From NCBI GenBank assembly GCA_905211265.1, contig CAJMAC010000004.1:41976-105975 (forward strand): a stretch of 64,000 nt of DNA. Direction: 5' to 3'. The position numbers were made by a program, and so were the translations under genes. A model generated the notes under the pieces. The model made no database searches. It was not told where the DNA came from and saw only the letters and a list, made by a program, of their open reading frames with translations. This document shows positions 9,975-37,425 of this stretch, in pieces. The DNA comes from an uncultured Eubacteriales bacterium. GTDB lineage: Bacteria; Bacillota_I; Bacilli_A; RF39; UBA660. The stretch's first letter is position 1. Each line of letters opens with the position of its first letter.

Positions 9975-10016
9975 AAAAAAATGTGACTGCATTGTAATAT
10001 CAACACAACCACATTT
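9975..10016 (-). terminator. Putative intrinsic terminator after the DUF2207 gene
   Basis: On the minus strand, AAATGTG..(inner TTGT/ACAA)..CACATTT is followed by a 7-nt T run (plus-strand A run 9975-9981). Confidence 0.5.
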
Positions 10017-10029
10017 ATACTCTACTATT

Positions 10030-12411
10030 CTACCAAGAACCTCCACCGCCTCCGCCTGAGCCGCCGCCAGATGATCCCCCGCCAGAGAAACTTCCTCCTG
10101 ATGAACCACTACTTGAAGAACTTTGGGACATTGATTTTTGTGCAGATGCCATCGTTGAATTCATAAATGTTCCAAATGTCATTATATTAAAACTACTTGG
10201 ACTATCATACCAAGATGGTGCTTGTAATGAAATAGTTTCAAACTTTTTAATCCATTTATCTGATACTCCTAATACGTAAGTATAAGGTAATATATCATAG
10301 AAATAAGTTGGATTTTGCATAACCATTGCCTCTAATTTATCTTTTTCAGCTGTTTCTAAAAAGTTTTTAAAGCCTTTTAATTTCCCTAATATTTCATTGC
10401 CATATGGAGTTCTTTTAGGTAAATATTTTAAACAAATTGCTAATCCTAAAATGCATAACATTCCTATAATATAAATAACTAAATATATATAATCTTGTAA
10501 TAATGATGGTAAAACCATAAATTTCAATGACATTCCAACCCACATTCCTCCTACAAATAAACCAAATAACTTAGTTATAATTGATGAATATGTTGGCTTA
10601 CCATTTACATATATTGTTCTAGTTCCTCCTAATAACAATGTAAACATTATTGTAAATCCAATACCAGGAAACAATAAAGCAGCCCAAATAATTTCTAATT
10701 CGCCATATTGAATAAGTGGTGGTATTGATATTAAACAATAAATAATTATAGCCATTAATATTATAAATATCTTTTTATCAGAAGCACTTTTCTCTAATAT
10801 TTTATTTTTATTATCTTCACTATTTATATTTGTTAATATAGCATTCGTTGTAACATAAAAATTATCACGTAAGTCTGATGAAGTTACTTCATCTATTTTG
10901 TTATTATAGTAAACTTCATTATCAATTTCAAATATTGAATCTTCAGGTTTTTTTGTAAATAATCCCCTTAAGAACATTCGCTCATTTATATCATTGCCAT
11001 GATATTCTTTTAATTTAGTAATTTTAAATCCATGAGAAGTTGAAAACAAACTTTTTTCTTCGTAATCAGATATTTTTATATATCCTTTATTGGCTAAATA
11101 CACAAGTAGAGATGTTACATCTCGTTCTACTGCTTTTCCTTTGTATAAAAAACCAACATCTAAACTATTGCATCCTGATGGTGGATAAAACTCAACAGTT
11201 TCAACAACAATGTCATCTTTTCCATATTTTTTCCATATTAAATATCCTATTAATAGGAATAGTATTGGAATTACAATAGAAATAATCATCATTAAATCTA
11301 GATTATTACTTGCACCGACAAAATATCCTTCGGGTAATTCTAATCTTACAGTTAATGCTTCACCTGGATTTAAAGTTCCATTTAATTTGCCTATAATAAC
11401 ATTACCATCCAGATCATAATCTATATTTGAACTATTTGTTGAACCTATTTTACCACTTGAAAAACCAAGTTTTGATTTATCAAATTCCTTAGGCATAGTA
11501 ATAGTAAAAGTTATATTACTTATTTTAGTATCCCACTCATCCCCAATTAAATTAAAATATAATTCATCATATCCTTTTCCAGTATCTTTTCCTAAATTAT
11601 ATAAATAACTAATGGTATAATTTTTTTGCCCTGTTACTGTATAATCAGGATTTCCTATTTTAATTACTTTATATATACCTTCATTAGATAATGAATAATT
11701 GTCATTAACATTAATATTGCTAATTTTTACACGATTATTCGAAGTTGTTCCATCTAATCTTGTTACTTTGTTTTTTAAAGGAATTTTTCTAAAAATACCA
11801 TGTTTATAAGTATTAAAATAAGCACCGATTTTTTCAGTAATATTTAAAGTATTATTCTCATTTACAACAATGTCTATATTATATTTATTAATTACATAAT
11901 CATATGAACTATATTGATTATTTTGACTAAGATTTTCTTTAGTAAGAGGCTTTCCTTTTACTGTGTAATAATTTATCTTAAAATAAGCTATATCATCAAT
12001 TTTATAATTACCTAAGAAGTCATTGTCATAAAGGATTATATTCATCTGATAATTATCTTTAGCAAGCCTAGGAGATTCTGTTTTAGTTGACCTAGCAACT
12101 ATTTTATAGTTTGTATCATAATAATCTATTGTCATATAAGCAGATAAATAATATCCACTAGTATTTATCATTTTTCCAAATAAGACTCCATATGAAGTTA
12201 ATCCTCCAGTATTTAAAGTAGATTTGCTAAAATATACTTCTGATAAAGAAAAATCTTCACCAACATAATTATAAGATACATCATCTATTTTTATAAAATC
12301 ACTAGAATATTTTTCAGCATTTACAACATTAGGAAAAACAAATAATCCCAATATAATAAATGCAATAAATGAATACACTTTGTTAATAATTCTTTTCATT
12401 TCACTCTCCAT
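10030..12411 (-). CDS. DUF2207-family membrane protein with Gly/Ser-rich C-terminal tail
   Basis: 793 aa: signal/TM, a large extracytoplasmic domain, a multi-TM region, then the tail SSSSSGSSGGSFSGGGSSGGGSGGGGGGSW. Sits immediately downstream of lemA. An alternative start (MKRII) at 12399 has GGAG upstream. Confidence 0.8.
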   Translation of the reverse strand: MESEMKRIINKVYSFIAFIILGLFVFPNVVNAEKYSSDFIKIDDVSYNYVGEDFSLSEVYFSKSTLNTGGLTSYGVLFGKMINTSGYYLSAYMTIDYYDTNYKIVARSTKTESPRLAKDNYQMNIILYDNDFLGNYKIDDIAYFKINYYTVKGKPLTKENLSQNNQYSSYDYVINKYNIDIVVNENNTLNITEKIGAYFNTYKHGIFRKIPLKNKVTRLDGTTSNNRVKISNINVNDNYSLSNEGIYKVIKIGNPDYTVTGQKNYTISYLYNLGKDTGKGYDELYFNLIGDEWDTKISNITFTITMPKEFDKSKLGFSSGKIGSTNSSNIDYDLDGNVIIGKLNGTLNPGEALTVRLELPEGYFVGASNNLDLMMIISIVIPILFLLIGYLIWKKYGKDDIVVETVEFYPPSGCNSLDVGFLYKGKAVERDVTSLLVYLANKGYIKISDYEEKSLFSTSHGFKITKLKEYHGNDINERMFLRGLFTKKPEDSIFEIDNEVYYNNKIDEVTSSDLRDNFYVTTNAILTNINSEDNKNKILEKSASDKKIFIILMAIIIYCLISIPPLIQYGELEIIWAALLFPGIGFTIMFTLLLGGTRTIYVNGKPTYSSIITKLFGLFVGGMWVGMSLKFMVLPSLLQDYIYLVIYIIGMLCILGLAICLKYLPKRTPYGNEILGKLKGFKNFLETAEKDKLEAMVMQNPTYFYDILPYTYVLGVSDKWIKKFETISLQAPSWYDSPSSFNIMTFGTFMNSTMASAQKSMSQSSSSSGSSGGSFSGGGSSGGGSGGGGGGSW

Positions 12412-12413
12412 AA

Positions 12414-12962
12414 TTATAATTTAATTTTTACGTTTTTTCGCTCATTTTCAGTAGCTTCAAACATTTTTCTTGTTTTATATCCAAATATACTAGCTATTAT
12501 ATTACTTGGAAACATTTGAACTTTATTATTGAAAATTCTTACAGTACCATTATAATATTTTCTAGCATTGGCAATATCGTCTTCAACTTTTACTAATTGT
12601 GTACTTAAATCTTTAAAATTTTCATTTGCTTTAAGTTCTGGATAAGACTCTGCTACTGCCATTAATTTATTAATACCTTGTGATAATTTATTATTAACTT
12701 CTACTTTATCATTTGTATTCATTTTATCATAGGAATTACTCCTTAAATTAGTAATTTCTTCTAAAGTATTTTTTTCATGTTTAGCATATCCTTTTACTAC
12801 TTCAACAAGATTAGGAATTAAATCCCATCTCTTTTTTAAATAAATATCCATTGTAGAAAATGCTTCTTCTACTTTATTGTTTAATTTTATTAGACTATTA
12901 TAAGTTGTTAATACCAACAATAAAAGTATTACAACTACTGCTATAATTATATATAACCACAT
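12414..12962 (-). CDS. lemA: LemA-family protein
   Basis: 182 aa with an N-terminal TM. LemA-like core (YNSLIKLNNKVEEAFSTMDIYLKKRWDLIPNLVE..YPELKA..ARKYYN). Confidence 0.9.
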   Translation of the reverse strand: MWLYIIIAVVVILLLLVLTTYNSLIKLNNKVEEAFSTMDIYLKKRWDLIPNLVEVVKGYAKHEKNTLEEITNLRSNSYDKMNTNDKVEVNNKLSQGINKLMAVAESYPELKANENFKDLSTQLVKVEDDIANARKYYNGTVRIFNNKVQMFPSNIIASIFGYKTRKMFEATENERKNVKIKL

Positions 12963-12984
12963 TCTTTTACACTCCTTTAGTATA

Positions 12985-12993
12985 ATTATACCA
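12985..12993 (-). promoter_or_regulatory. Extended -10 promoter element for lemA
   Basis: The minus strand reads TGGTATAAT (TGnTATAAT) about 20 nt upstream of the lemA RBS AAAGGAG. Confidence 0.45.
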
Positions 12994-13041
12994 CACTTTT
13001 TTATTTTTTATAAATTATTATCAGAACTCAAAAAATATATT

Positions 13042-13126
13042 AGTTTTGAGATTACAAGCTCAAAACTTCTTTTTAATAACCTTGGGTATTAAAAAGCCTT
13101 GGAATAACTTTTAAGTTATGAAAAGG
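13042..13126 (-). repeat. Triple-hairpin intergenic element, copy A (18 nt after the valS stop)
   Basis: Three adjacent hairpins: AGTTTTGAG(13042-50)/CTCAAAACT(13059-67); CTTTTTAATA(13069-78)/TATTAAAAAG(13087-96); CCTT..ATAACT/AGTTAT..AAGG(13097-13126). Aligns end to end with 20204-20288 and 37336-37425. Confidence 0.85.
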
Positions 13127-13144
13127 AAAAAAGAAATAGACGCG

Positions 13145-15688
13145 CTATTTCAATTTATTTTTAATTATTTCTAATTGTTCTAATTCTTTTGATAAATCTT
13201 CTTTTTCTTTATTTACTATATTGATAGGAGCTTTTGATGTATAGTTTTCGTTTGATAGTAATTTTTTTCTTCGTTCAATTGAATTAGTTAATCTTGTTAA
13301 TTCTTGTTCTAAGCGAGTATGCTCTTCCTCAAGATTTTTAGTATTATCATATACTATTTCTAATGATAAATTATTATATTCTACTTTTACTGTATTAGAA
13401 GTATTTTCAGTAGTTAATTTATCTTTTATTTTTAATGAATTTAATATTAAGTCTAAGTTATCATTATTTTTAATATTATTTATTACTTTAAAATCTGAAC
13501 CTATATTTAATTCTAATTTTTTATTTCTAAATAATGTAATAAATTCAAGAATGTTGTCTATTTCTTTTTCTTCTTTATTAAATACATATTCTTTTTCATA
13601 TTTAGGATAAGTACTTATCATTATAGATTCTGAGTCTTTAATTGGTAACATTTGATATATTTCTTCGGTTACATATGGCATGAATGGATGTAACATTTTA
13701 ATAATTGAAGTTAATACTTTTAATAATACACTTTTAGTAGTATTGTTTTGATTAAATTTAGATAATTCAATATATTTATCACAGAAATCAGTCCATATGA
13801 AATTATATAATGTATTTCCTACGATATTAAAATCATATTTATCCATTGATTTAGTAATGCTTTCTATTGTTTTATTTAATTTTGTTAATATCCATTTATC
13901 ACTATTAGTAAGATTATCTAATGTATAGTCTTTGTCGTTAAAGTCTTCTAGATTCATAAGTACATATCTTGAAGCATTCCATATTTTATTTATGAAATTC
14001 CAAGTTGATTTTACTTTTTCTTCATCATATCTTAAATCTTGTCCTGGTGCACTATTGGTAGTTAGGAAGAACCTTAATGAATCACAACCATATGTATCTA
14101 TTACATCCATTGGGTCTACTCCATTACCTAATGATTTAGACATTTTTCTTCCTTCTTTATCACGAATTAATCCGTGAATTAAGCAATCTTTGAATGGTCT
14201 TTTTTCTGTAAATTCAAGTGATTGGAATACCATACGACATACCCAGAAGAATATTATATCATAACCTGTTACTAATACATCATTTGGGAAATATCTTTTG
14301 AAATCAGATGTTTCATTTGGCCATCCTAAGGTTGCAAATGGCCATAAAGCACTAGAGAACCAAGTATCTAATACATCTTCATCTTGTGTCCAACCATCTT
14401 CTTGCGGTGAATTTATTCCTACATATACTTCATCATTTTTATACCATGCTGGAATTCTATGTCCCCACCATAATTGACGAGATATACACCAATCATGGCA
14501 ATCTTCCATCCAATTAATTAATATTTTTTCAAATCTTTCTGGTACAAAGTTTACTTTGGTATCTTTATTTTTTTGATTATCTAATACTTGTTTAGATAAT
14601 TTTTTCATATCTACAAACCATTGCTTAGATAAGTAAGGTTCAACCATTACTCCGGTTCTTTCTGAATGTCCTACATTATGAGTAATTTTTTCTATACTTA
14701 TTAATAAGTCTTGTTCCTTTAAATCTTCGACTAATTTTTTTCTACATTCAAATCTATCTAATCCTTTATAGATACCAGCATTTTCATTCATTGTAGCATC
14801 ATCATTCATTACGATTATTCTTTCAAGGTTATGTCTATTACCTACTTCAAAGTCATTTGGATCATGAGCAGGTGTTATTTTAACTACACCAGTACCAAAG
14901 TCCATATCAGCATGATTATCTCCGATTATTGGAATTAGTTTATTTACTATTGGTAATACAACATTTTTTCCTATTAATTTATTATATCTTGTATCTTCTG
15001 GATTAACTGCTACGGCAGTATCTCCGAATAATGTTTCTGGTCTTGTTGTAGCAACTTCTAGAAAGTCATTTGTTCCTTCGATAAAATATTTTATGTGATA
15101 AAATGCTCCTTCGGTATCTTTATAGATAACTTCTTCATTTGATAAAGCTGTTTTAGCTTCAGGATCCCAGTTTATTATACGTTCTCCGCGATAAATTAAT
15201 CCTTCATTATATAGTTTACAAAATACTGTTTTTACTGCTAGTGTTAGGTTTTCATCTAGGGTAAATGCTTCTTTATTGTAATCTACTGATAAACCTAATT
15301 TTGCCCATTGTTTTCTTATGTTATCACTATATTCATGTGTCCAATTCCAACATTCTTCAAGAAATTTTTCTCTACCTAATATTGATTTATTTTTTCCTTG
15401 TTCTTTTATTCTTTTTACTACTTTTGCTTCAGTTGCTATTGCAGCATGGTCCATTCCTGGTAACCATAAGCAGTCATAACCTTGCATTCTTTTATATCTT
15501 ATAATTATATCTTGTAATGTTGTATCCCATGCATGTCCTAAATGTAATTTACCTGTTACATTTGGCGGAGGTATAACTATACAAAATGGTTCTTTGGTTA
15601 AATCACCAGAATTAAAATATCCTTTTTCTTTCCATTTATTGTATTTGTCTTTTTCTACTTCGATATGATTATATTTCTTGTCTAACAT
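13145..15688 (-). CDS. valS: Valine--tRNA ligase
   Basis: 847 aa. Class I HIGH ([12 protein letters not shown]) and KMSKS motifs, plus the C-terminal coiled coil typical of ValRS. Confidence 0.95.
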
Positions 15689-16461: not shown

Positions 16462-16660
16462 AAAAAAAGATAATTCTATCCAAAGGACGAATTATCGTGG
16501 TACCACCTTAATTTATACTTATTACTGATAACGCAAGCGAATGCGGTAATTCAACTCACAAGCAACCTTCAATTAAATTAATCTAGAAACTTTCACCATA
16601 TTTTCCTCGCTATAAGATTATTAGATAATTTACTCCTCTTGTTCTTCGTCTTTTAATATA
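16462..16660 (-). promoter_or_regulatory. T-box riboswitch leader, Val (GUU) specifier
   Basis: The minus strand carries the T-box sequence AAGGTGGTACCACG (plus 16496-16509). The terminator is GATAATTC/GAATTATC (16469-16496) followed by T7. Stem I elements include AGCGA and GGTGAAAG. The specifier loop reads GAAG-GTT-G just before the closing stem CTTGT. Confidence 0.85.
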
Positions 16661-20129: not shown

Positions 20130-20203
20130 TTTATCATACCTTTCATAGTAATTATATCATTTTAACTAGTTTTAGTAAATAATTTTATTAAAATTTATAA
20201 TTT

Positions 20204-20288
20204 AATTTTGAAACTTTAAGTTCAAAATTACTTTTTAATAACCTTAGGTATTAAAAAACCTTGGAATAGCTTTTTAGTTATGGAAAGG
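20204..20288 (-). repeat. Triple-hairpin intergenic element, copy B (13 nt after the PFOR stop)
   Basis: AATTTTGAA(20204-12)/TTCAAAATT(20221-29); CTTTTTAATA(20231-40)/TATTAAAAAA(20249-58); CCTT..AAGG(20259-88). Hairpin 1 differs from copies A and C by two compensatory pair changes. Confidence 0.85.
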
Positions 20289-20301
20289 AAAAAAGAAAGA
20301 A

Positions 20302-23300
20302 TTAATCTTCTTTCCTATTATCTTGAACTTTATAATAATTATATCTAGATATTGCCCATTCTTTTTGATTATCTAGTATTTTGTCACAATCTTTTGGATT
20401 TATTTGTTTAAGATTTGCATATCTATTTTCAGTCATTAAAAACTCATCATATTTATCAAAGTTTGGTTTGGAATCCATAGTTAATTCTTTAATATCAGGA
20501 TTATATCTAAATGTTATAAAGTAACCACATTCTGTTGCTAAATAAGCATTTGTTTGGCTATGTTCCATTCCTTGTTTTATACCATGCTCAATACATGGAG
20601 AGTATGCAATTATTAATGATGGTCCATTGTGGTTTGTTGCTTCTTTTAATACTTTTAGGTATTGTTCTTGATTATAACCTATATTAGTTTGTGCTACATA
20701 AACATTTGGATAACACATAGCCATTCTTGCTAAGTCTTTTTTATAATTCTTTTTACCATTGGAAGTAAATGATGCAATTGAGCCTAAATTACTTGATTTT
20801 GATGATTGTCCTCCGGTATTAGAGTATACTTCGGTATCTAGTACTAAGATATTTATATTTTCATTGGTAGATAATACATGGTCTAATCCACCGAATCCTA
20901 TATCATAAGCAAATCCATCTCCACCGATTATCCACATTGATTTTGGTACAATATAGTCTTTTAATTTTTCTAGATATGGATGAGAATTATAATCTATTTT
21001 ATCTTTTACTTCTTTACATATTTCATAATTATCCATATTATTTATCCATTTTTTAAATAATGGTGTCATATTATCTTCCATATATTTTTTTATTTTATTT
21101 CTTTTTACATTTATTCCTGTTTTAATACCTAATCCATACTCAGAATTATCTTCGAATAAACTACTTGCCCAAGGTATATTATATGCGATTGATGGCATAC
21201 TTGCACTATATATGGAAGAACATCCTGTAGCATTAGCAATTATTATGTTATCTGAAAACATTCTTGTAAGATTAGTTAAATATGGTGTTTCTCCACAACC
21301 TGCACATGCTCCAGAAAACTCAAATTTTGGTTCTTTCATGCTTATGCTTTTTACATTTAATGTAGGTAATGCTTTTTCACTATTTAAGTTGTTTTTTACT
21401 AAGTAATCAAATTCTTGATTAGTAAATTCTTCTTTATTATATGGTTTCATAGTTAAGGCTTTTTTACCTAATTTACCAGGACAAGCATTTACACATACTC
21501 CACATCCTGTACAATCTTTATATGAAACTGATACTACATAGTTTGTATCCTTTGGTAAGATACTTGGTATAGAATCAACAGCATTATTATTTTTATCTAT
21601 AACATATGGTCTTATTACGCCATGAGGACATGCAAAGGCACATTTTCCACATTGAATACAATTTTCTTTTATCCAACAAGGTACATTTTCTGCAATTTCT
21701 CTTTTTTCTTTATCTGTTGTATGTTTAACTATTCCTTGCTTTTTATCTAGAAATGCACTTACTGGTAAGTTATCTCCATGTAATTTATTTATTGTTTCAT
21801 AGAAATCTAATTCTTCGTTTGGTATTTTTAATTTTGACCAAGTACTATCTACTTCGATTTCATTAATATATTTATCTGATACTTCGACTATTTTATTATT
21901 GATATCTACTATTTTTTGTCCTTTATGTTTAAATCTAGTTTCATTAGTTTCTTTCATTATTTGTTTTACTTTATTAATTGGCATAATACCTATTATTTTA
22001 AAGATACATACTTCCATACAGGTACTTATTTTATTTTTAAGTCCTAATTCATTTGCTATTTTATAGGCGTCTATGGTAAATAATTTTAAGTTTTTATCAG
22101 ATATTATTTTCTTTATTTTATTAGGTAATGAGGTAATTAATTCATTACTATTTAGATTGGTATTTAAAAGTACTATGCCATTATCTTTGATATTATCTAA
22201 GACATCATATTTATAAATGTAGGTATCTTTGGAGATTACTACTAAGGATGGATTTTCTACATAATAAGATGACATTATTGTATTTTTACTTATTCTTAAG
22301 TGACTTCTGGTTACTCCACCAGACTTTTTAGAATCATATTGGAAGTATCCTTGGACATAGTTTTTAGTATGATTTCCTATTATTTTTATTATATCTTTGG
22401 ATGTTGATACCATTCCGTCTGAACCAAAACCATAGAATAAGTATTCTATATTTCCTGTATCTATTTTAAAGTTATTATCTACTTTTAAACTTAATTTTGT
22501 TACATCATCATTTATACTTATAGTAAAGTTGTTTTTATTTTTTTCTTTTAAATTTGTGTATACTGCCATAATATCTCTTGGGGTAGTATTTTTAGAAGAT
22601 AGTCCGTAGCGTCCTCCAATAATTTTTATTTCTTTATCTTTAAGAGCATTTACGATATCTAAATATAGTGGTTCTCCAATTGAACCTGGTTCTTTTGTTC
22701 TATCTAATACTGCAATATTTGTTACTGTTTTAGGTAAAACTTTTTGTAAATATGTGGAAGAAAATGGTCTATATAGATGTACTTCGATTAATCCTAAATC
22801 TTGGTCATTTAGATAATTAAGTAATTCTTTTATGGTATTACATACACTTCCCATTGCTACAATTACATATTTTGCTTTTTTAGAACCATAGTAATTAAAT
22901 GGTTTATAGTCTGTTTTTTCTAATTTATTTATTTTTTCCATATAGTCTGATACGATATCTGGTACATTTAGATAGTCTGTATTTCTTGACTCTGTATGTT
23001 GAAAATAGATATCTTCATTTTCTGCAGTTCCTCTTGTGTTGGGATTTTCATTATTCATTTGTCTATTTCTAAAGTTATCAAGGGCTTTTTTATCTATCAT
23101 TTTTTCTATTCTGTTATAATCCATTAATTTTATTTTATTTATTTCATGACTTGTTCTAAAACCATCGAAGAAATGTACAAATGGTAATGATGATGATATT
23201 GCTGAAAGGTGTGCTACTGCAGATAAATGGTATGCTTCAGTGGGATTAGAAGACGCTAACATACATACTCCAGTTTGTCTTACGGCATATACATCTTGAT

Positions 23301-34902: not shown

Positions 34903-36225
34903 ATGAAAAAAAGAAAGTTAAGTTTTCAAAAAATATTTAATTTTGTTAGTCTTATTTTTTTAATTACTTGCTGTTTATTTTACGGTGGTAGATTTGTAAA
35001 GTTATATTTAGAAAACAAGAAACAAGTTGTGGAAGAAACTAATACGCTAGGTAAAAGTTTAAAGGATAATAATAGCGAGACATTAAAGAATATCAATGGT
35101 GAATATTATTTTACTGGGGAAGTTGATAATAACTATGTATTATATTCTGGTATTATGTTTAGAGTTATAAAGATAGGAAATAATAATGTTATTACAATGA
35201 TTAGTGATAATAGTATTACTTCACTTGCTTTTGGAGAAGTTGAAAAATATACTGATTCAATGGTTAATACTTGGTTAAATAAAACTGATAAGGAAGGTTC
35301 TGGTATATTAGAAAAGAATCTAAATAGTATGATTAGTTATTTAAAAAGTGCTAATATATGTACTGATAAGATAGATGATGTTAGTAAGAGTAATTGTACT
35401 AATTATGATAATGAATATTATTTATCTAGTTTATCTATAAGTGATTATATTAATACTGGTGCAAGTAGTGGTTTTATTAATACTAAAGAAAACTTTTATT
35501 TGGATGGAATGACTTCGAATAATGAAGTATGGTATGTTACTAGTGAAGGAAAAATTAATAAAAATAAAGGTAATGAAATATATGGTATTAAGCCTGTACT
35601 TATTTTAAAAGAAAATATGGAATTAATTGGTGGTACTGGTACAAAGGATGACCCTTATACAATTGAAAGTGTACTTGGTACATTTGGTAGTTATGTTAAA
35701 TTAGGCGAAGATACATGGAGAGTTATTGATGTTAATGATAATAATGTTAAATTAATGTTAGATGATTATTTAAAGAGTGGTAATGATACTGTTTCATATA
35801 AATATTCACAATATACTTCATATCATGATGATACAAAATATGGAACTTTAGCATATTATTTAAAGAATACTTATTTAAAAGGTTTAAGTTATAAAGATTT
35901 AGTTATTGAAACTAACTATGCTAATGGATATTATGGTAAAGATAATAATTTTGATTATACTGATACTTTAAAGAAAACTGTTAATACAAAAGTTGCTTCA
36001 ATTAGTATTGGAGATATTATATTAAATCATGAATTAAATAATTATTTTACAATGACCAGTAGTACTAAATCTAATAAGTATGTATACACTATTCAAAGTG
36101 ATAATACTCCTTATTCAAAAATAGTATCTAGTACTTCAAAGGTTGTTCCTGTTATTACTATAAGTAAAGATAAATTAACTAGTGGTACGGGAAGTAAAAA
36201 TGACCCTTTAAAGGTTGGTGAGTAA
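34903..36225 (+). CDS. Membrane-anchored extracellular protein with two tandem homologous modules
   Basis: N-terminal TM. Two ~180-aa modules each end in a similar motif (KPVLILK..GGTGTKDDPYTIE and VPVITISK..SGTGSKNDPLKV). No catalytic motif recognised. Confidence 0.6.
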   Translation: MKKRKLSFQKIFNFVSLIFLITCCLFYGGRFVKLYLENKKQVVEETNTLGKSLKDNNSETLKNINGEYYFTGEVDNNYVLYSGIMFRVIKIGNNNVITMISDNSITSLAFGEVEKYTDSMVNTWLNKTDKEGSGILEKNLNSMISYLKSANICTDKIDDVSKSNCTNYDNEYYLSSLSISDYINTGASSGFINTKENFYLDGMTSNNEVWYVTSEGKINKNKGNEIYGIKPVLILKENMELIGGTGTKDDPYTIESVLGTFGSYVKLGEDTWRVIDVNDNNVKLMLDDYLKSGNDTVSYKYSQYTSYHDDTKYGTLAYYLKNTYLKGLSYKDLVIETNYANGYYGKDNNFDYTDTLKKTVNTKVASISIGDIILNHELNNYFTMTSSTKSNKYVYTIQSDNTPYSKIVSSTSKVVPVITISKDKLTSGTGSKNDPLKVGE

Positions 36226-36226
36226 A

Positions 36227-37252
36227 ATGGAAAGAAATAAGAAAAAATGTAAGATTAAAAAATCTACAATTGTATTTATTATATTAGATATACTTGCAAT
36301 TACTGGATTTATTATAACTTATGGTCCTTGGCCTACTTTAAGAAATTTATATGTTAATACTGCGATGAATACAATGGATCATCAGTATTTTGCAAGAATA
36401 TTTTATAGTGAAGAAAGAATTAATGAAATAATGAACAGTAACTATTTTGTAACTATTGATGATGATGTTAATTTGGATGATATTGTTATTGATACTTCGA
36501 TTAAAACTACTTTTAAAGATGAGTATGAAAAAGAATTATTAACTAGAGATAATGAAGATGATTTATATAAACTTATTAATTTAAAGGTAGGAAGTGCAAA
36601 TGCATATTTAGTAGCAATATATGACCCTACAAAAGTACATTTGATTTCTAAGGAAAAATTAGGTACTGAACATGGTGAAAGAATTATTACAATGTGTGAA
36701 AGATATGGTGGTAGCGTTTGTATTAATGGTGGTGGATTTGTAGACTATGGATATGGCTCTGGTATTCCTATTGGAAGCGTTATTGAAAATGGTGAAATCA
36801 AATGGGCTGATGGTGATATAAATACTACTACTAACAATATTATTGGTATGACAAAAGATGGTAAATTAAAATTAATGAGTAATGCTACTGCTACTGAAGC
36901 TCTTGAAGCAGGTGTTACTGATGGTATGGTATTTGGACCATTCTTAATAGTTAATGGTAAACCACTTGAAATTGTTGGTGACCCTTGGGGAAGAAGTCCA
37001 AGAGTAGCAATTGCTCAAAGAAAAGATGGCGTTATGATGTTTTTAGTAATTGATGGTGAAAACTATATTAATGGTGCTTCTTTATCTGATGTTGTTGAAA
37101 CATTACAAAGATATGGTGCATATAATGCTGCTAATCTTGATGGTGGTACTTCTTCAACACTAATTATAAATAATAAGTTAATTAATAATCCTCCAAAGGC
37201 TAAAGCTACTAATGGTAGATATGTTGTTACAGGATGGGGATTAATTCCATAA
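36227..37252 (+). CDS. Phosphodiester glycosidase family protein (DUF2233/NAGPA-like), membrane-anchored
   Basis: The ATG at 36227 follows GGTGAG, 1 nt after the upstream stop. N-terminal TM. C-terminal motifs INGGGF, RVAIAQRKDG and NAANLDGGTSSTL. Confidence 0.8.
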   Translation: MERNKKKCKIKKSTIVFIILDILAITGFIITYGPWPTLRNLYVNTAMNTMDHQYFARIFYSEERINEIMNSNYFVTIDDDVNLDDIVIDTSIKTTFKDEYEKELLTRDNEDDLYKLINLKVGSANAYLVAIYDPTKVHLISKEKLGTEHGERIITMCERYGGSVCINGGGFVDYGYGSGIPIGSVIENGEIKWADGDINTTTNNIIGMTKDGKLKLMSNATATEALEAGVTDGMVFGPFLIVNGKPLEIVGDPWGRSPRVAIAQRKDGVMMFLVIDGENYINGASLSDVVETLQRYGAYNAANLDGGTSSTLIINNKLINNPPKAKATNGRYVVTGWGLIP

Positions 37253-37254
37253 TA

Positions 37255-37294
37255 AAAAGACTAAAGTAGAAATCACTTCTATTTTTAGTCTTTT
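37255..37294 (+). terminator. Intrinsic terminator of the 34903-37252 operon
   Basis: AAAAGACTAAA(37255-65)/TTTAGTCTTTT(37284-94) form an 11-bp stem, with an inner TAGAA/TTCTA pairing. A T-rich stretch follows. Confidence 0.7.
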
Positions 37295-37335
37295 ACTTTA
37301 TTTATAGATTAATTATTAGAATATAAAATATACTA

Positions 37336-37425
37336 AGTTTTGAGATTAAAAGCTCAAAACTATTTTTAATAACTTATTTATAAGGTATTAAAAATCCTTG
37401 GAATAACTTTTAAGTTATGGAAAGG
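37336..37425 (-). repeat. Triple-hairpin intergenic element, copy C (11 nt after the ABC-F stop)
   Basis: AGTTTTGAG(37336-44)/CTCAAAACT(37353-61); ATTTTTAATA..TATTAAAAAT(37362-95) with a 6-nt insertion that lengthens the stem (CTTA/TAAG); CCTT..AAGG(37396-37425). Confidence 0.85.

Follow-up and report, generated by a model that had tools for sequence, protein, structure and literature searches.

We identify a repeated element of three hairpins in an uncultured Eubacteriales bacterium of the RF39 lineage, starting from a 64-kb stretch of contig CAJMAC010000004.1 (the window). The repeat is a real, previously undescribed, lineage-restricted and non-coding interspersed family. Three of its copies lie in the window, and gut-metagenome contigs supply about 35 others, spread over roughly 17 additional loci. 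The census total is ~20 distinct loci, all of them intergenic. Our favored reading, held tentatively and with slightly less than even confidence, is that of a lineage-restricted REP/BOX-like repeat anchored at T-runs, whose face-to-face terminator-like units may act as a bidirectional insulator and whose copies may spread by recombination or gene conversion. Model bacteria have well-documented sets of small interspersed repeats, whereas uncultured, very AT-rich gut Bacilli have hardly any on record, and such repeats can be mistaken in annotation for small RNAs (sRNAs) or for motifs of 3′ untranslated regions (3′-UTRs).

A three-hairpin repeat family supported by covariation

With filters off, a covariance model of the repeat run over the window finds exactly three copies, and the minus strand carries all of them (E 1e-16 to 1e-19). 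Copy A scores 104.8 bits, copy C 95 bits and copy B 93 bits, and the next best match in the window reaches 24 bits. The conserved core patterns of the repeat match only these three places, against 0–0.02 expected by chance. The copies are 86–91 nt long, share one orientation and align end to end with a mean column identity of 80%. They begin 18, 13 and 11 nt after the stop codons of valS (encoding ValRS), PFOR and an ABC-F gene, respectively (open reading frame ends 13145, 20302 and 37437); the identity of these genes comes from Pfam annotation of identical genes on public contigs. An initial annotation of the window, made from the letters alone, had placed the three co-oriented copies, their distances from the stop codons and the upstream genes correctly. 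The conserved "single-stranded linkers" that it described are paired: CCTTGGAATA is an arm of the hairpin 3 stem and GTATTAAAAA an arm of the hairpin 2 stem.

Hairpins are numbered in the order of the window's plus strand, so that a transcript from the upstream gene meets hairpin 3, then 2, then 1. Read on the minus strand, the sense of the upstream genes, hairpin 3 is CCTTTYC-ATAACTT-aa-AAGTTAT-TCC-AAGG, with an outer stem of 4 bp, a 3×3 internal loop and an inner stem of 6–7 bp. Hairpin 2, on the same strand, has the arms TTTTTAATA and TATTAAAAA (T5AATA/TATTA5) around an apical part that takes one of two forms, a short CC-YAA-GG with a bulged T or a longer CTTAT-nnn-ATAAG. The stem of hairpin 1 has 9–11 bp and reads either AGTTTTGAG...CTCAAAACT or, in an A/T form, ATTTTGAA...TTCAAAAT.

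Copy A (13041..13126, minus strand, 86 nt) is defined by sequence, fold, pair counts and the covariance model (E 4.5e-19). In plus-strand coordinates, its hairpin 1 lies at 13042-13067, its hairpin 2, of the short apical form CC-CAA-GG with a bulged base, at 13069-13096, and its hairpin 3 at 13097-13126, with the outer stem CCTT/AAGG, the 3×3 internal loop and the inner stem ATAACTT/AAGTTAT. Copy B (20203..20288, minus strand, 86 nt) is defined by sequence, the covariance model and strain variants in the related contigs L033, L035, L038 and L063. It comprises hairpin 1 at 20203-20230, the A/T stem variant, hairpin 2 at 20232-20257 and hairpin 3 at 20259-20288, where one mismatch is A·C on the minus strand and G·U on the plus strand. 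Copy C (37335..37425, minus strand, 91 nt), defined by sequence and its score, is the same in 8 strains that have an identical ABC-F protein; its hairpins occupy 37336-37361, 37362-37395 (hairpin 2, of the long apical form CTTAT-aaa-ATAAG) and 37396-37425. On either strand the three-hairpin folds are the structures of lowest energy, and their z-scores (−1.2 to −4.3) are alike for both strands. Small open reading frames inside the repeat were rejected as candidates, an ATG in the hairpin 3 complement leading to unrelated peptides of 5–22 amino acids (aa).

Pairing is retained where the sequence varies. Across 31 distinct copies, 97.4% of cells are paired, compared with 36–62% when the partners are slid. 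Five pairs of the whole repeat change on both sides among these copies; two of the five belong to hairpin 1 and alternate between G-C and A-U, in 17 and 14 sequences. These compensatory changes support all three hairpins. The strand asymmetry of G·U versus A·C cells, ~4 in the sense orientation and ~2 in the opposite one, does not decide the functional strand. Three divergent variants occur in related contigs, at L079:3772-3850 (after ileS), L069:4660-4719 (after recO) and L045:9205-9282 (after pnp). They keep the order of the three hairpins, the T-run on the 5′ side and the hairpin 2 tip GCCTAAGGTC, with quite unlike stems (TTTCTAGTG/CACTAGAAA, CAAGTAAG/CTTTCTTG and TTTCTAATG/CATTAAAAA).

The census rests on a gapped-pattern scan of gut-metagenome contigs, which returned 45 loci with ~35 true copies; the covariance model confirmed these and added two divergent ones. 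Across the family the repeat measures 81–96 bp, in a host of ~25% GC (22–30% across the window). The contigs overlapping the window are 96–98% identical to it, so most copies belong to the same species or to very close relatives, and exact-protein look-ups find genes of the window in Hadza and other human gut metagenomes. The repeat and its covariance model offer a clean marker for one prevalent human-gut species.

At 16 of the 20 loci the repeat follows the orientation of the upstream gene, 8–58 nt after its stop codon, the upstream genes being valS, PFOR, ABC-F, ileS, recO, pnp, pheT, topA, rluB, hsp20 and others. At the remaining four, it is inverted with respect to both neighboring genes: its hairpin 1 side trails the stop codon of a mostly accessory gene by 0–37 nt, and its hairpin 3 side is turned toward a core gene's promoter region (gltX, trmH-like, rnfC-like or UPF0297). 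The description of the element as always following a stop codon in a single orientation is thus accurate for the window and for 16 of 20 loci, and breaks down at the inverted four. No copy in the ~20-locus census lies between divergent genes. The repeat follows the local majority gene orientation at most loci and opposes it at three of the four inverted ones. Third-codon-position GC and TA skews, taken as a guide to replication orientation, were too noisy on contigs of 5–15 kb.

Searches farther afield point to restriction to one lineage. The exact 19-base core gave only 29 single, scattered chance matches in 185,579 species genomes, BLAST against plasmid and phage collections found no similarity to the repeat, and four pattern matches in viral contigs were rejected as unrelated coding sequence. 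No further copy occurs in 17 kb flanking the window, nor in 103 kb of sister taxa with LemA 79–86% identical and other gene contexts; a ValS homologue search for more distant orthologous sites returned only proteins 98–100% identical, all from the same species. Rfam 15 at the gathering threshold, run on the window and 8 loci, matches only T-box leaders elsewhere, and permissive Rfam scans of copy A and one divergent copy stay at chance level (E ≥0.58 and ≤18 bits, against thresholds of ≥46 bits). ARAGORN finds no tRNA or tmRNA genes in the window. The first 200 of the 408 supplementary files of a human-microbiome structured-RNA survey (PMC8040213) contain no sequence match to the repeat. Literature searched on such repeats yielded general background only, and avoidance of the restriction site CCWWGG was not seen. 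The check that the initial annotation had proposed, a covariance model combined with Rfam, thus recovers copies in related contigs and no Rfam family, and of the roles it listed, a REP/BOX-like lineage-specific repeat agrees with a non-coding family of ~35 further copies and no Rfam match.

Terminator T-runs and a predicted bidirectional insulator

Two of the three window copies stand directly behind an intrinsic terminator that is specific to the locus and lies outside the repeat. The valS terminator (13127..13151, minus strand), identified by sequence and fold, reads GAAATAG-cgcgt-CTATTTC followed by TTTTTT. Its hairpin includes the TAG stop and the last codons of valS, and copy A begins right after its T-tract; a 45-nt stretch upstream of copy A folds at −4.7 kcal/mol with the T6 run. 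The PFOR terminator (20289..20314, minus strand), likewise identified by sequence and fold, reads GAAAGAA-gattaa-TTCTTTC followed by TTTTTT, with the TAA stop in its loop, a T-tract that abuts copy B and a fold of −7.8 kcal/mol with the T6 run. Copy C lies between convergent genes, and here the ABC-F stop codon leads to the repeat without an intervening separate terminator. The terminator hairpin of the convergent gene 36215-37252, read from the sequence at 37255..37294 on the plus strand (AAAAGACTAAA ... TTTAGTCTTTT, with flanking A- and T-runs), is ~40 nt beyond copy C and not part of the repeat.

On its other side the repeat is followed by promoter-like sites of the next gene. A consensus scan places one for lemA at 12985..13014 (minus strand; TTTATA, 18 nt spacer, TG-TATAAT; 10/12 matches, extended −10), starting 27 nt past copy A in a region that is invariant among strains L031-L038. 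Another, for the gene of an amino-acid kinase, lies at 20151..20179 (minus strand; TTTACT, 17 nt spacer, TG-TATAAT) and starts 24 nt past copy B. Across loci, such sites (−35, extended −10) fall 13–36 nt beyond hairpin 1; they are consensus matches only, and the scan finds no more of them here than in shuffled sequence.

The same arrangement recurs across the family. A native hairpin of unrelated sequence (−4.7 to −11.7 kcal/mol) stands right before the T-run at at least 13 of 16 same-orientation loci and at none of the four inverted loci. The repeat starts, on its hairpin 3 side, 0–3 nt after the T-run. A T-run of at least five within 12 nt 5′ of the repeat is present at 13 of 20 loci, compared with 10% of random intergenic positions (about 4e-9 by a binomial estimate), and both orientation classes are T-rich there. 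The nucleotides between T-run and repeat vary (none, G, ATG, GTT, GTA or ATT, with ATG going with one subfamily), giving the 5′ junctions TTTT|CC, TATG|CC, TTTG|CC, TGTT|CC, TGTA|CC, TATT|CC and TTAA|CC; on the 3′ flank the repeat is followed by YTWA and then unrelated sequence. Given a hairpin and T-tract terminator before most copies and a promoter-like site after them, the repeat is probably mostly outside the mRNA, and most transcripts should end before reaching it. At several loci (L044:~11528-11560, L086:~1915-1940 and, upstream of the repeat, L044/L078), the native terminator hairpins share (TA)GTAGATTTA...TCTAC(TA), and the native terminators may themselves be a loose sequence family.

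This placement weakens another role listed initially, that of a 3′-UTR stabilizer, processing module or 3′-derived sRNA. As the tail of the upstream mRNA, the repeat would stabilize it against 3′ exonucleases, provide a processing site or give rise to a small RNA. Its position shortly after a stop codon at 16 of 20 loci, the lack of another terminator between stop codon and repeat at locus C, the compensatory changes that maintain the hairpins and the slightly commoner G·U pairs in the sense orientation are all consistent with such a module. We nevertheless consider it quite improbable: a hairpin and T-tract terminator lies between the stop codon and the repeat at at least 13 of the 16 same-orientation loci, four loci carry the repeat opposite to both neighboring genes, the folding z-scores favor neither strand, and an independent sRNA would have no conserved promoter. 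An independent sRNA gene on the plus strand was rejected on the same ground.

We propose instead, tentatively, that the repeat is a bidirectional insulator docked on terminators. All 31 aligned copies of family 1 have hairpin 3 followed by N-TTTTT-AATA and the complement of hairpin 1 followed by N(1-2)-T5-6-AATAA; the latter T-run lies on the plus strand at about 13068-13078, 20231-20240 and 37362-37371 in the window. Median energies over these copies are −4.6 kcal/mol for hairpin 3 and −9.0 kcal/mol for the hairpin 1 complement. In the consensus scan of copies A and C, hairpin 1, which is the most distant from the stop codon, looks like a terminator on either strand, and the predicted structure there combines a stable hairpin with a T-rich tract within 0–2 nt; the tract is T5–6 in the 31 family-1 copies. 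The initial view that the element is not terminator-like was therefore half right, since each outer hairpin of family 1, read toward the center, is followed by T5-6 AATA. Because the hairpin 2 arms are T5AATA/TATTA5, an outer hairpin and then a U-tract would be transcribed whichever side the polymerase comes from, and two outer hairpins that face each other, each with its T-run, suggest a bidirectional insulator.

In the proposed mechanism, the repeat would occupy a normally untranscribed spacer, after the T-tract of the upstream terminator at most loci and before the next promoter. RNA polymerase arriving from upstream would meet hairpin 3 (~−4.6 kcal/mol) and then N-UUUUU-AAUA, so that in the sense direction the repeat may back up the native terminator against read-through. 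Polymerase arriving from downstream would meet the hairpin 1 complement (~−9 kcal/mol) and then N(1-2)-U5-6-AAUAA, and antisense or read-in transcription from that side would be stopped more strongly than sense transcription. At the four inverted loci, it is the hairpin 1 unit that lies 0–37 nt past the stop codon, and in this interval we noted no further terminator-like hairpin. Termination in either direction is what we infer from sequence and fold. Family-1 repeats resemble intrinsic and bidirectional terminators in presenting a hairpin and U-tract in both directions, with stem energies comparable to those of the genome's native terminators (−4.7 to −11.7 kcal/mol). A normal bidirectional terminator is a single hairpin with an A-tract and a T-tract, whereas the repeat sets two different hairpins across a palindromic T5AATA/TATTA5 center; and unlike ordinary terminators it is a repeated unit with conserved loops that usually follows another terminator. 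With this unusual architecture, mostly docked on a pre-existing terminator T-tract, the repeat may be a natural bidirectional insulator and could prove useful as a small genetic part in AT-rich hosts.

Several observations weigh against this proposal. Hairpin 3 is weak and carries a 3×3 internal loop, and a further terminator in the sense direction looks redundant where native terminators already precede most copies. The pnp-locus variant (L045:9205-9282) is without T-rich hairpin 2 arms, so terminator-likeness is not kept across the wider family, and the constancy of the T-tracts is partly built in because the census pattern included those arms. The apical loop of hairpin 2 is conserved, though a plain terminator would not need it: when the three divergent variants are added, 9 of 12 hairpin 2 pairs change on both sides around a conserved apical GCCTAAGGTC, a count somewhat inflated because two of the variants came from a pairing-aware model and the third from a complementary-arm search. 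Finally, a mobile element that targets T-runs and has no host function would explain the abutment equally well.

Variation among strains and possible routes of spread

At loci A, B and C the repeat is carried by all of the ~20 strains examined except L090, and no empty site was found. L090 (L090:7780-7960; window ~9990-13135) has a 3.3-kb deletion that starts in the T-run bordering copy A on its 5′ side and ends shortly past the DUF2207 terminator, removing the repeat, lemA and the DUF2207 gene, and its valS stop codon is mutated, giving an 866-aa ValS. Among orthologous copies, the repeat can diverge more than its surroundings: copy B and L063 are 89.5% identical in the repeat and 99% in the flanks, and L057 and L086 are 93.8% identical in the repeat versus 100% and 99.3% in the flanks. 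The strain differences in such copies are replacements of whole hairpin tips with pairing kept, and at some other loci the repeat is more conserved than its flanks. Copies are also mosaic, all four combinations of short or long hairpin 2 with G-C or A-T hairpin 1 being present. Tip replacement and mosaicism fit gene conversion between copies rather than steady purifying selection or recent transposition. In our favored reading the copies would likewise spread through exchange with one another (recombination or gene conversion), with T-runs as the anchor, and not through cut-and-paste transposition of the classical kind.

Related contigs differ in the genes beside the repeat, mostly on the hairpin 1 side (L044/L078, L053/L066, L066/L068 and L069/L080), and metagenome assemblies may break at repeat copies. 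A longer composite repeat unit was rejected, since flank-versus-flank BLAST gave only short extensions, of 49 nt in two divergent copies and 64 nt in two inverted copies. The former is a promoter-and-leader stretch: beyond their repeats, L079:3851-3925 and L069:4720-4800 share ~50 further nt, with a TTGACA/extended −10 promoter and the leader ATAAATCACTWAAAAAAGGGRGA, ahead of unrelated genes. This module appears to be repeated together with the variant of the ileS and recO loci.

In some strains (L030:7129-9850 and L088:12540-15260, corresponding to window ~13148 at the valS 3′ end), an extra cassette with a T-box leader and an 811-aa LeuRS-like gene lies between valS and the terminator plus repeat. 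A direct repeat of ~21 bp (AATAATTAAAAATAAATTGAA) borders it on both sides, so that the inserted gene ends in a duplicate of the last valS codons, and ValS in these strains has 848 or 853 aa rather than 847. In L087:5580-6102, the copy C repeat and downstream flank are joined to an unrelated upstream flank that encodes an atypical protein, which may reflect a chimeric assembly at the repeat or a rearrangement. On the hairpin 1 side of two different copies lie proteins of ~200 aa that look homologous by eye (L050:8886-9485, with a CdiA_C toxin domain in Pfam, and L079:7459-8076); other accessory genes on that side encode a NOV_C-domain protein and DnaJ-domain paralogues.

Another explanation, which we judge somewhat unlikely, is a mobile element that is purely selfish and non-autonomous and has no host function. 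Its hairpins would be recognized by a trans-acting enzyme for single-stranded or hairpin DNA, such as an IS200/IS605-type Y1 transposase, a REP-associated transposase (RAYT) or possibly an Rpn-family PD-(D/E)XK "putative transposase", with strand-specific insertion just 3′ of T-runs, which would leave the repeat behind terminators. The strict abutment to T-runs in both orientation classes agrees with this, as do the absence of terminal inverted repeats and target duplications, the asymmetric hairpins, and a bulged base and apical loop that stay conserved while the stems covary. Near-identical copies at unrelated loci, for example those of gltX and trmH, and the differing gene content beside the repeat in related contigs also speak for mobility. 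Set against these are the lack of any empty site in ~20 strains at three loci, the two end hairpins that are unrelated to each other, and the inconstant nucleotides between T-run and repeat, which leave no fixed 4–5 nt target of the IS200/IS605 kind; no Y1 transposase was seen in the part of the genome covered (~0.6 Mb).

The Rpn-family genes (TIGR01784; PF12784) deserve separate mention. They are found at L066:6242-7183, L068:6538-7494, L084:130-1086 and L045:2728-3708 and represent two loci; both, the only ones in the ~0.6 Mb searched, adjoin copies of the repeat, and the gene in L066 sits between an inverted pair of copies. The two copies in L066 differ in hairpins 2 and 3, and L068 is without a copy upstream of the same gene, which tells against a selfish element. 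The copies were accordingly rejected as transposon ends of the Rpn-family gene, the flanked case of L066 being non-identical in its two copies and not reproduced in L068. L065 carries an Rpn-family paralogue with an internal deletion. A more specific and improbable variant is that the repeat is a new structured cis-site that homes to the 3′ edge of terminator T-tracts without target duplication, the GCCUAAGGUC tip of its central hairpin being recognized by a dedicated protein, for which the Rpn-family PD-(D/E)XK "putative transposases" are one candidate. The repeat would then be a possible cis-partner of an orphan nuclease or "transposase" family. Were the protein of the Rpn family, this would be its first defined DNA substrate, and T-tract homing by a dedicated protein would define a class of terminator-targeting mobile DNA distinct from group IIC introns. 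Those introns show orientation-specific placement just downstream of intrinsic-terminator hairpins. The analogy is in targeting at most, as the repeat has only 81–96 nt, no ribozyme domains and no Rfam intron match.

Relation to known repeats and other features of the window

The repeat is of the general kind of small extragenic stem-loop repeats (REP/BIME, BOX, PATE) and lacks the defining traits of each named family; what sets it apart is the fixed order of three hairpins, the face-to-face geometry of its terminator-like units and its docking at the T-tracts of terminators. Terminal inverted repeats and target duplications, neither of which the initial annotation had seen, are indeed absent. 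In the alignment, the end sequences CCTTTYCATAAC and CTCAAAACT show no inverted-repeat relationship, searches for inverted repeats recover only entire copies that face each other, and the flanks of ~20 loci contain no direct repeat. A miniature inverted-repeat transposable element, or MITE, was rejected on both counts. The MITEs Correia (of Neisseria), ERIC and RUP resemble the repeat in being intergenic and ~100 bp long, can carry terminator or promoter activity and mark rearrangement points, but they carry inverted repeats at their termini and duplicate their target sites (for example TA). An integron attC site was also rejected: the ATAAC...GTTAT of hairpin 3 is off the core consensus (RYYYAAC ... 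GTTRRRY), the neighbors are housekeeping genes and there is no integrase.

REP/BIME elements (repetitive extragenic palindromes) of Enterobacteria and Pseudomonas are mobilized by RAYTs, with reported effects on transcription attenuation and mRNA stabilization. The repeat is like them short, non-coding, hairpin-forming and extragenic, lies at gene 3′ ends without terminal inverted repeats or target duplications, and shows mosaic and concerted evolution. It was rejected as a REP/BIME because it has three different hairpins in fixed order, in place of one imperfect palindrome of 20–40 nt or an inverted doublet, and no conserved 5′ tetranucleotide of the GTAG type. It is also extremely AT-rich, follows a terminator instead of preceding one and has no sequence similarity to these elements; no RAYT/Y1 transposase gene was noticed among the annotated neighbors in ~0.6 Mb of the species, an incomplete genome. 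BOX elements of Streptococcus pneumoniae, whose function is debated, are likewise intergenic and combine stem-loop sub-modules in different ways in a low-GC Gram-positive host. They consist of boxA, boxB and boxC with a variable copy number of boxB, whereas the repeat always has three hairpins, and the two share no sequence similarity. To our knowledge, BOX elements do not abut terminator T-tracts. As in IS200/IS605-derived palindrome-associated elements (PATEs), the hairpins are subterminal, without terminal inverted repeats or target duplication, the end hairpins have extrahelical bases and placement is strand-specific by short flanking sequence. An IS200/IS605-derived PATE was rejected because no constant tetra- or pentanucleotide target lies immediately 5′ of the left end. 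Unlike PATEs, moreover, the repeat has unrelated left and right hairpins, and no TnpA was found. A PATE would keep one orientation relative to replication, its active strand on the lagging-strand template; the orientation of the repeat does not consistently agree with that of most local genes, and the noisy skews give no clear reading of replication direction.

Comparison with BIMEs brings in a last explanation. Gyrase or IHF binds enterobacterial BIMEs. By analogy, the repeat might offer a chromosomal protein a place to bind DNA where transcription units end, and the extrusion of hairpins or cruciforms would relieve supercoiling driven by transcription. Its position in presumably non-transcribed spacers behind the housekeeping genes valS, ileS, pheT, pnp, topA and PFOR would suit such a role, as would the CC(N)AAGG motifs that recur in hairpins 3 and 2 and the hairpin 2 apical loop conserved across divergent variants. 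We hold it to be very improbable, because the stems covary instead of being conserved, which is unexpected for a double-stranded operator, the long form of hairpin 2 is without the CC(N)AAGG tip, and no candidate protein is known.

Other features of the window and neighboring contigs complete the picture. The sole Rfam match in the window is a T-box leader at 16480-16655 on the minus strand (102 bits), upstream of an HD-domain gene and the valS operon. Genes on the minority strand of the window and of L056, L058, L067 and L078 have a third-position GC skew of ~+0.5 and TA skew of ~+0.25, compared with ~−0.1 and −0.2 on the majority strand, which implies a putative leading strand rich in C and A at third positions. 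In a sister taxon with LemA 82% identical (L103:8648-9721 and L104:2829-3902), an IS110-family transposase gene lies directly upstream of lemA and the three-hairpin repeat is absent. Just past the right end of the window, upstream of rplI-dnaB, L100:1-9100 encodes a TraC-like protein, a TraG/VirD4-type coupling protein, a P-loop TraG and an M23 peptidase, a block of conjugation genes that suggests an integrative conjugative element.

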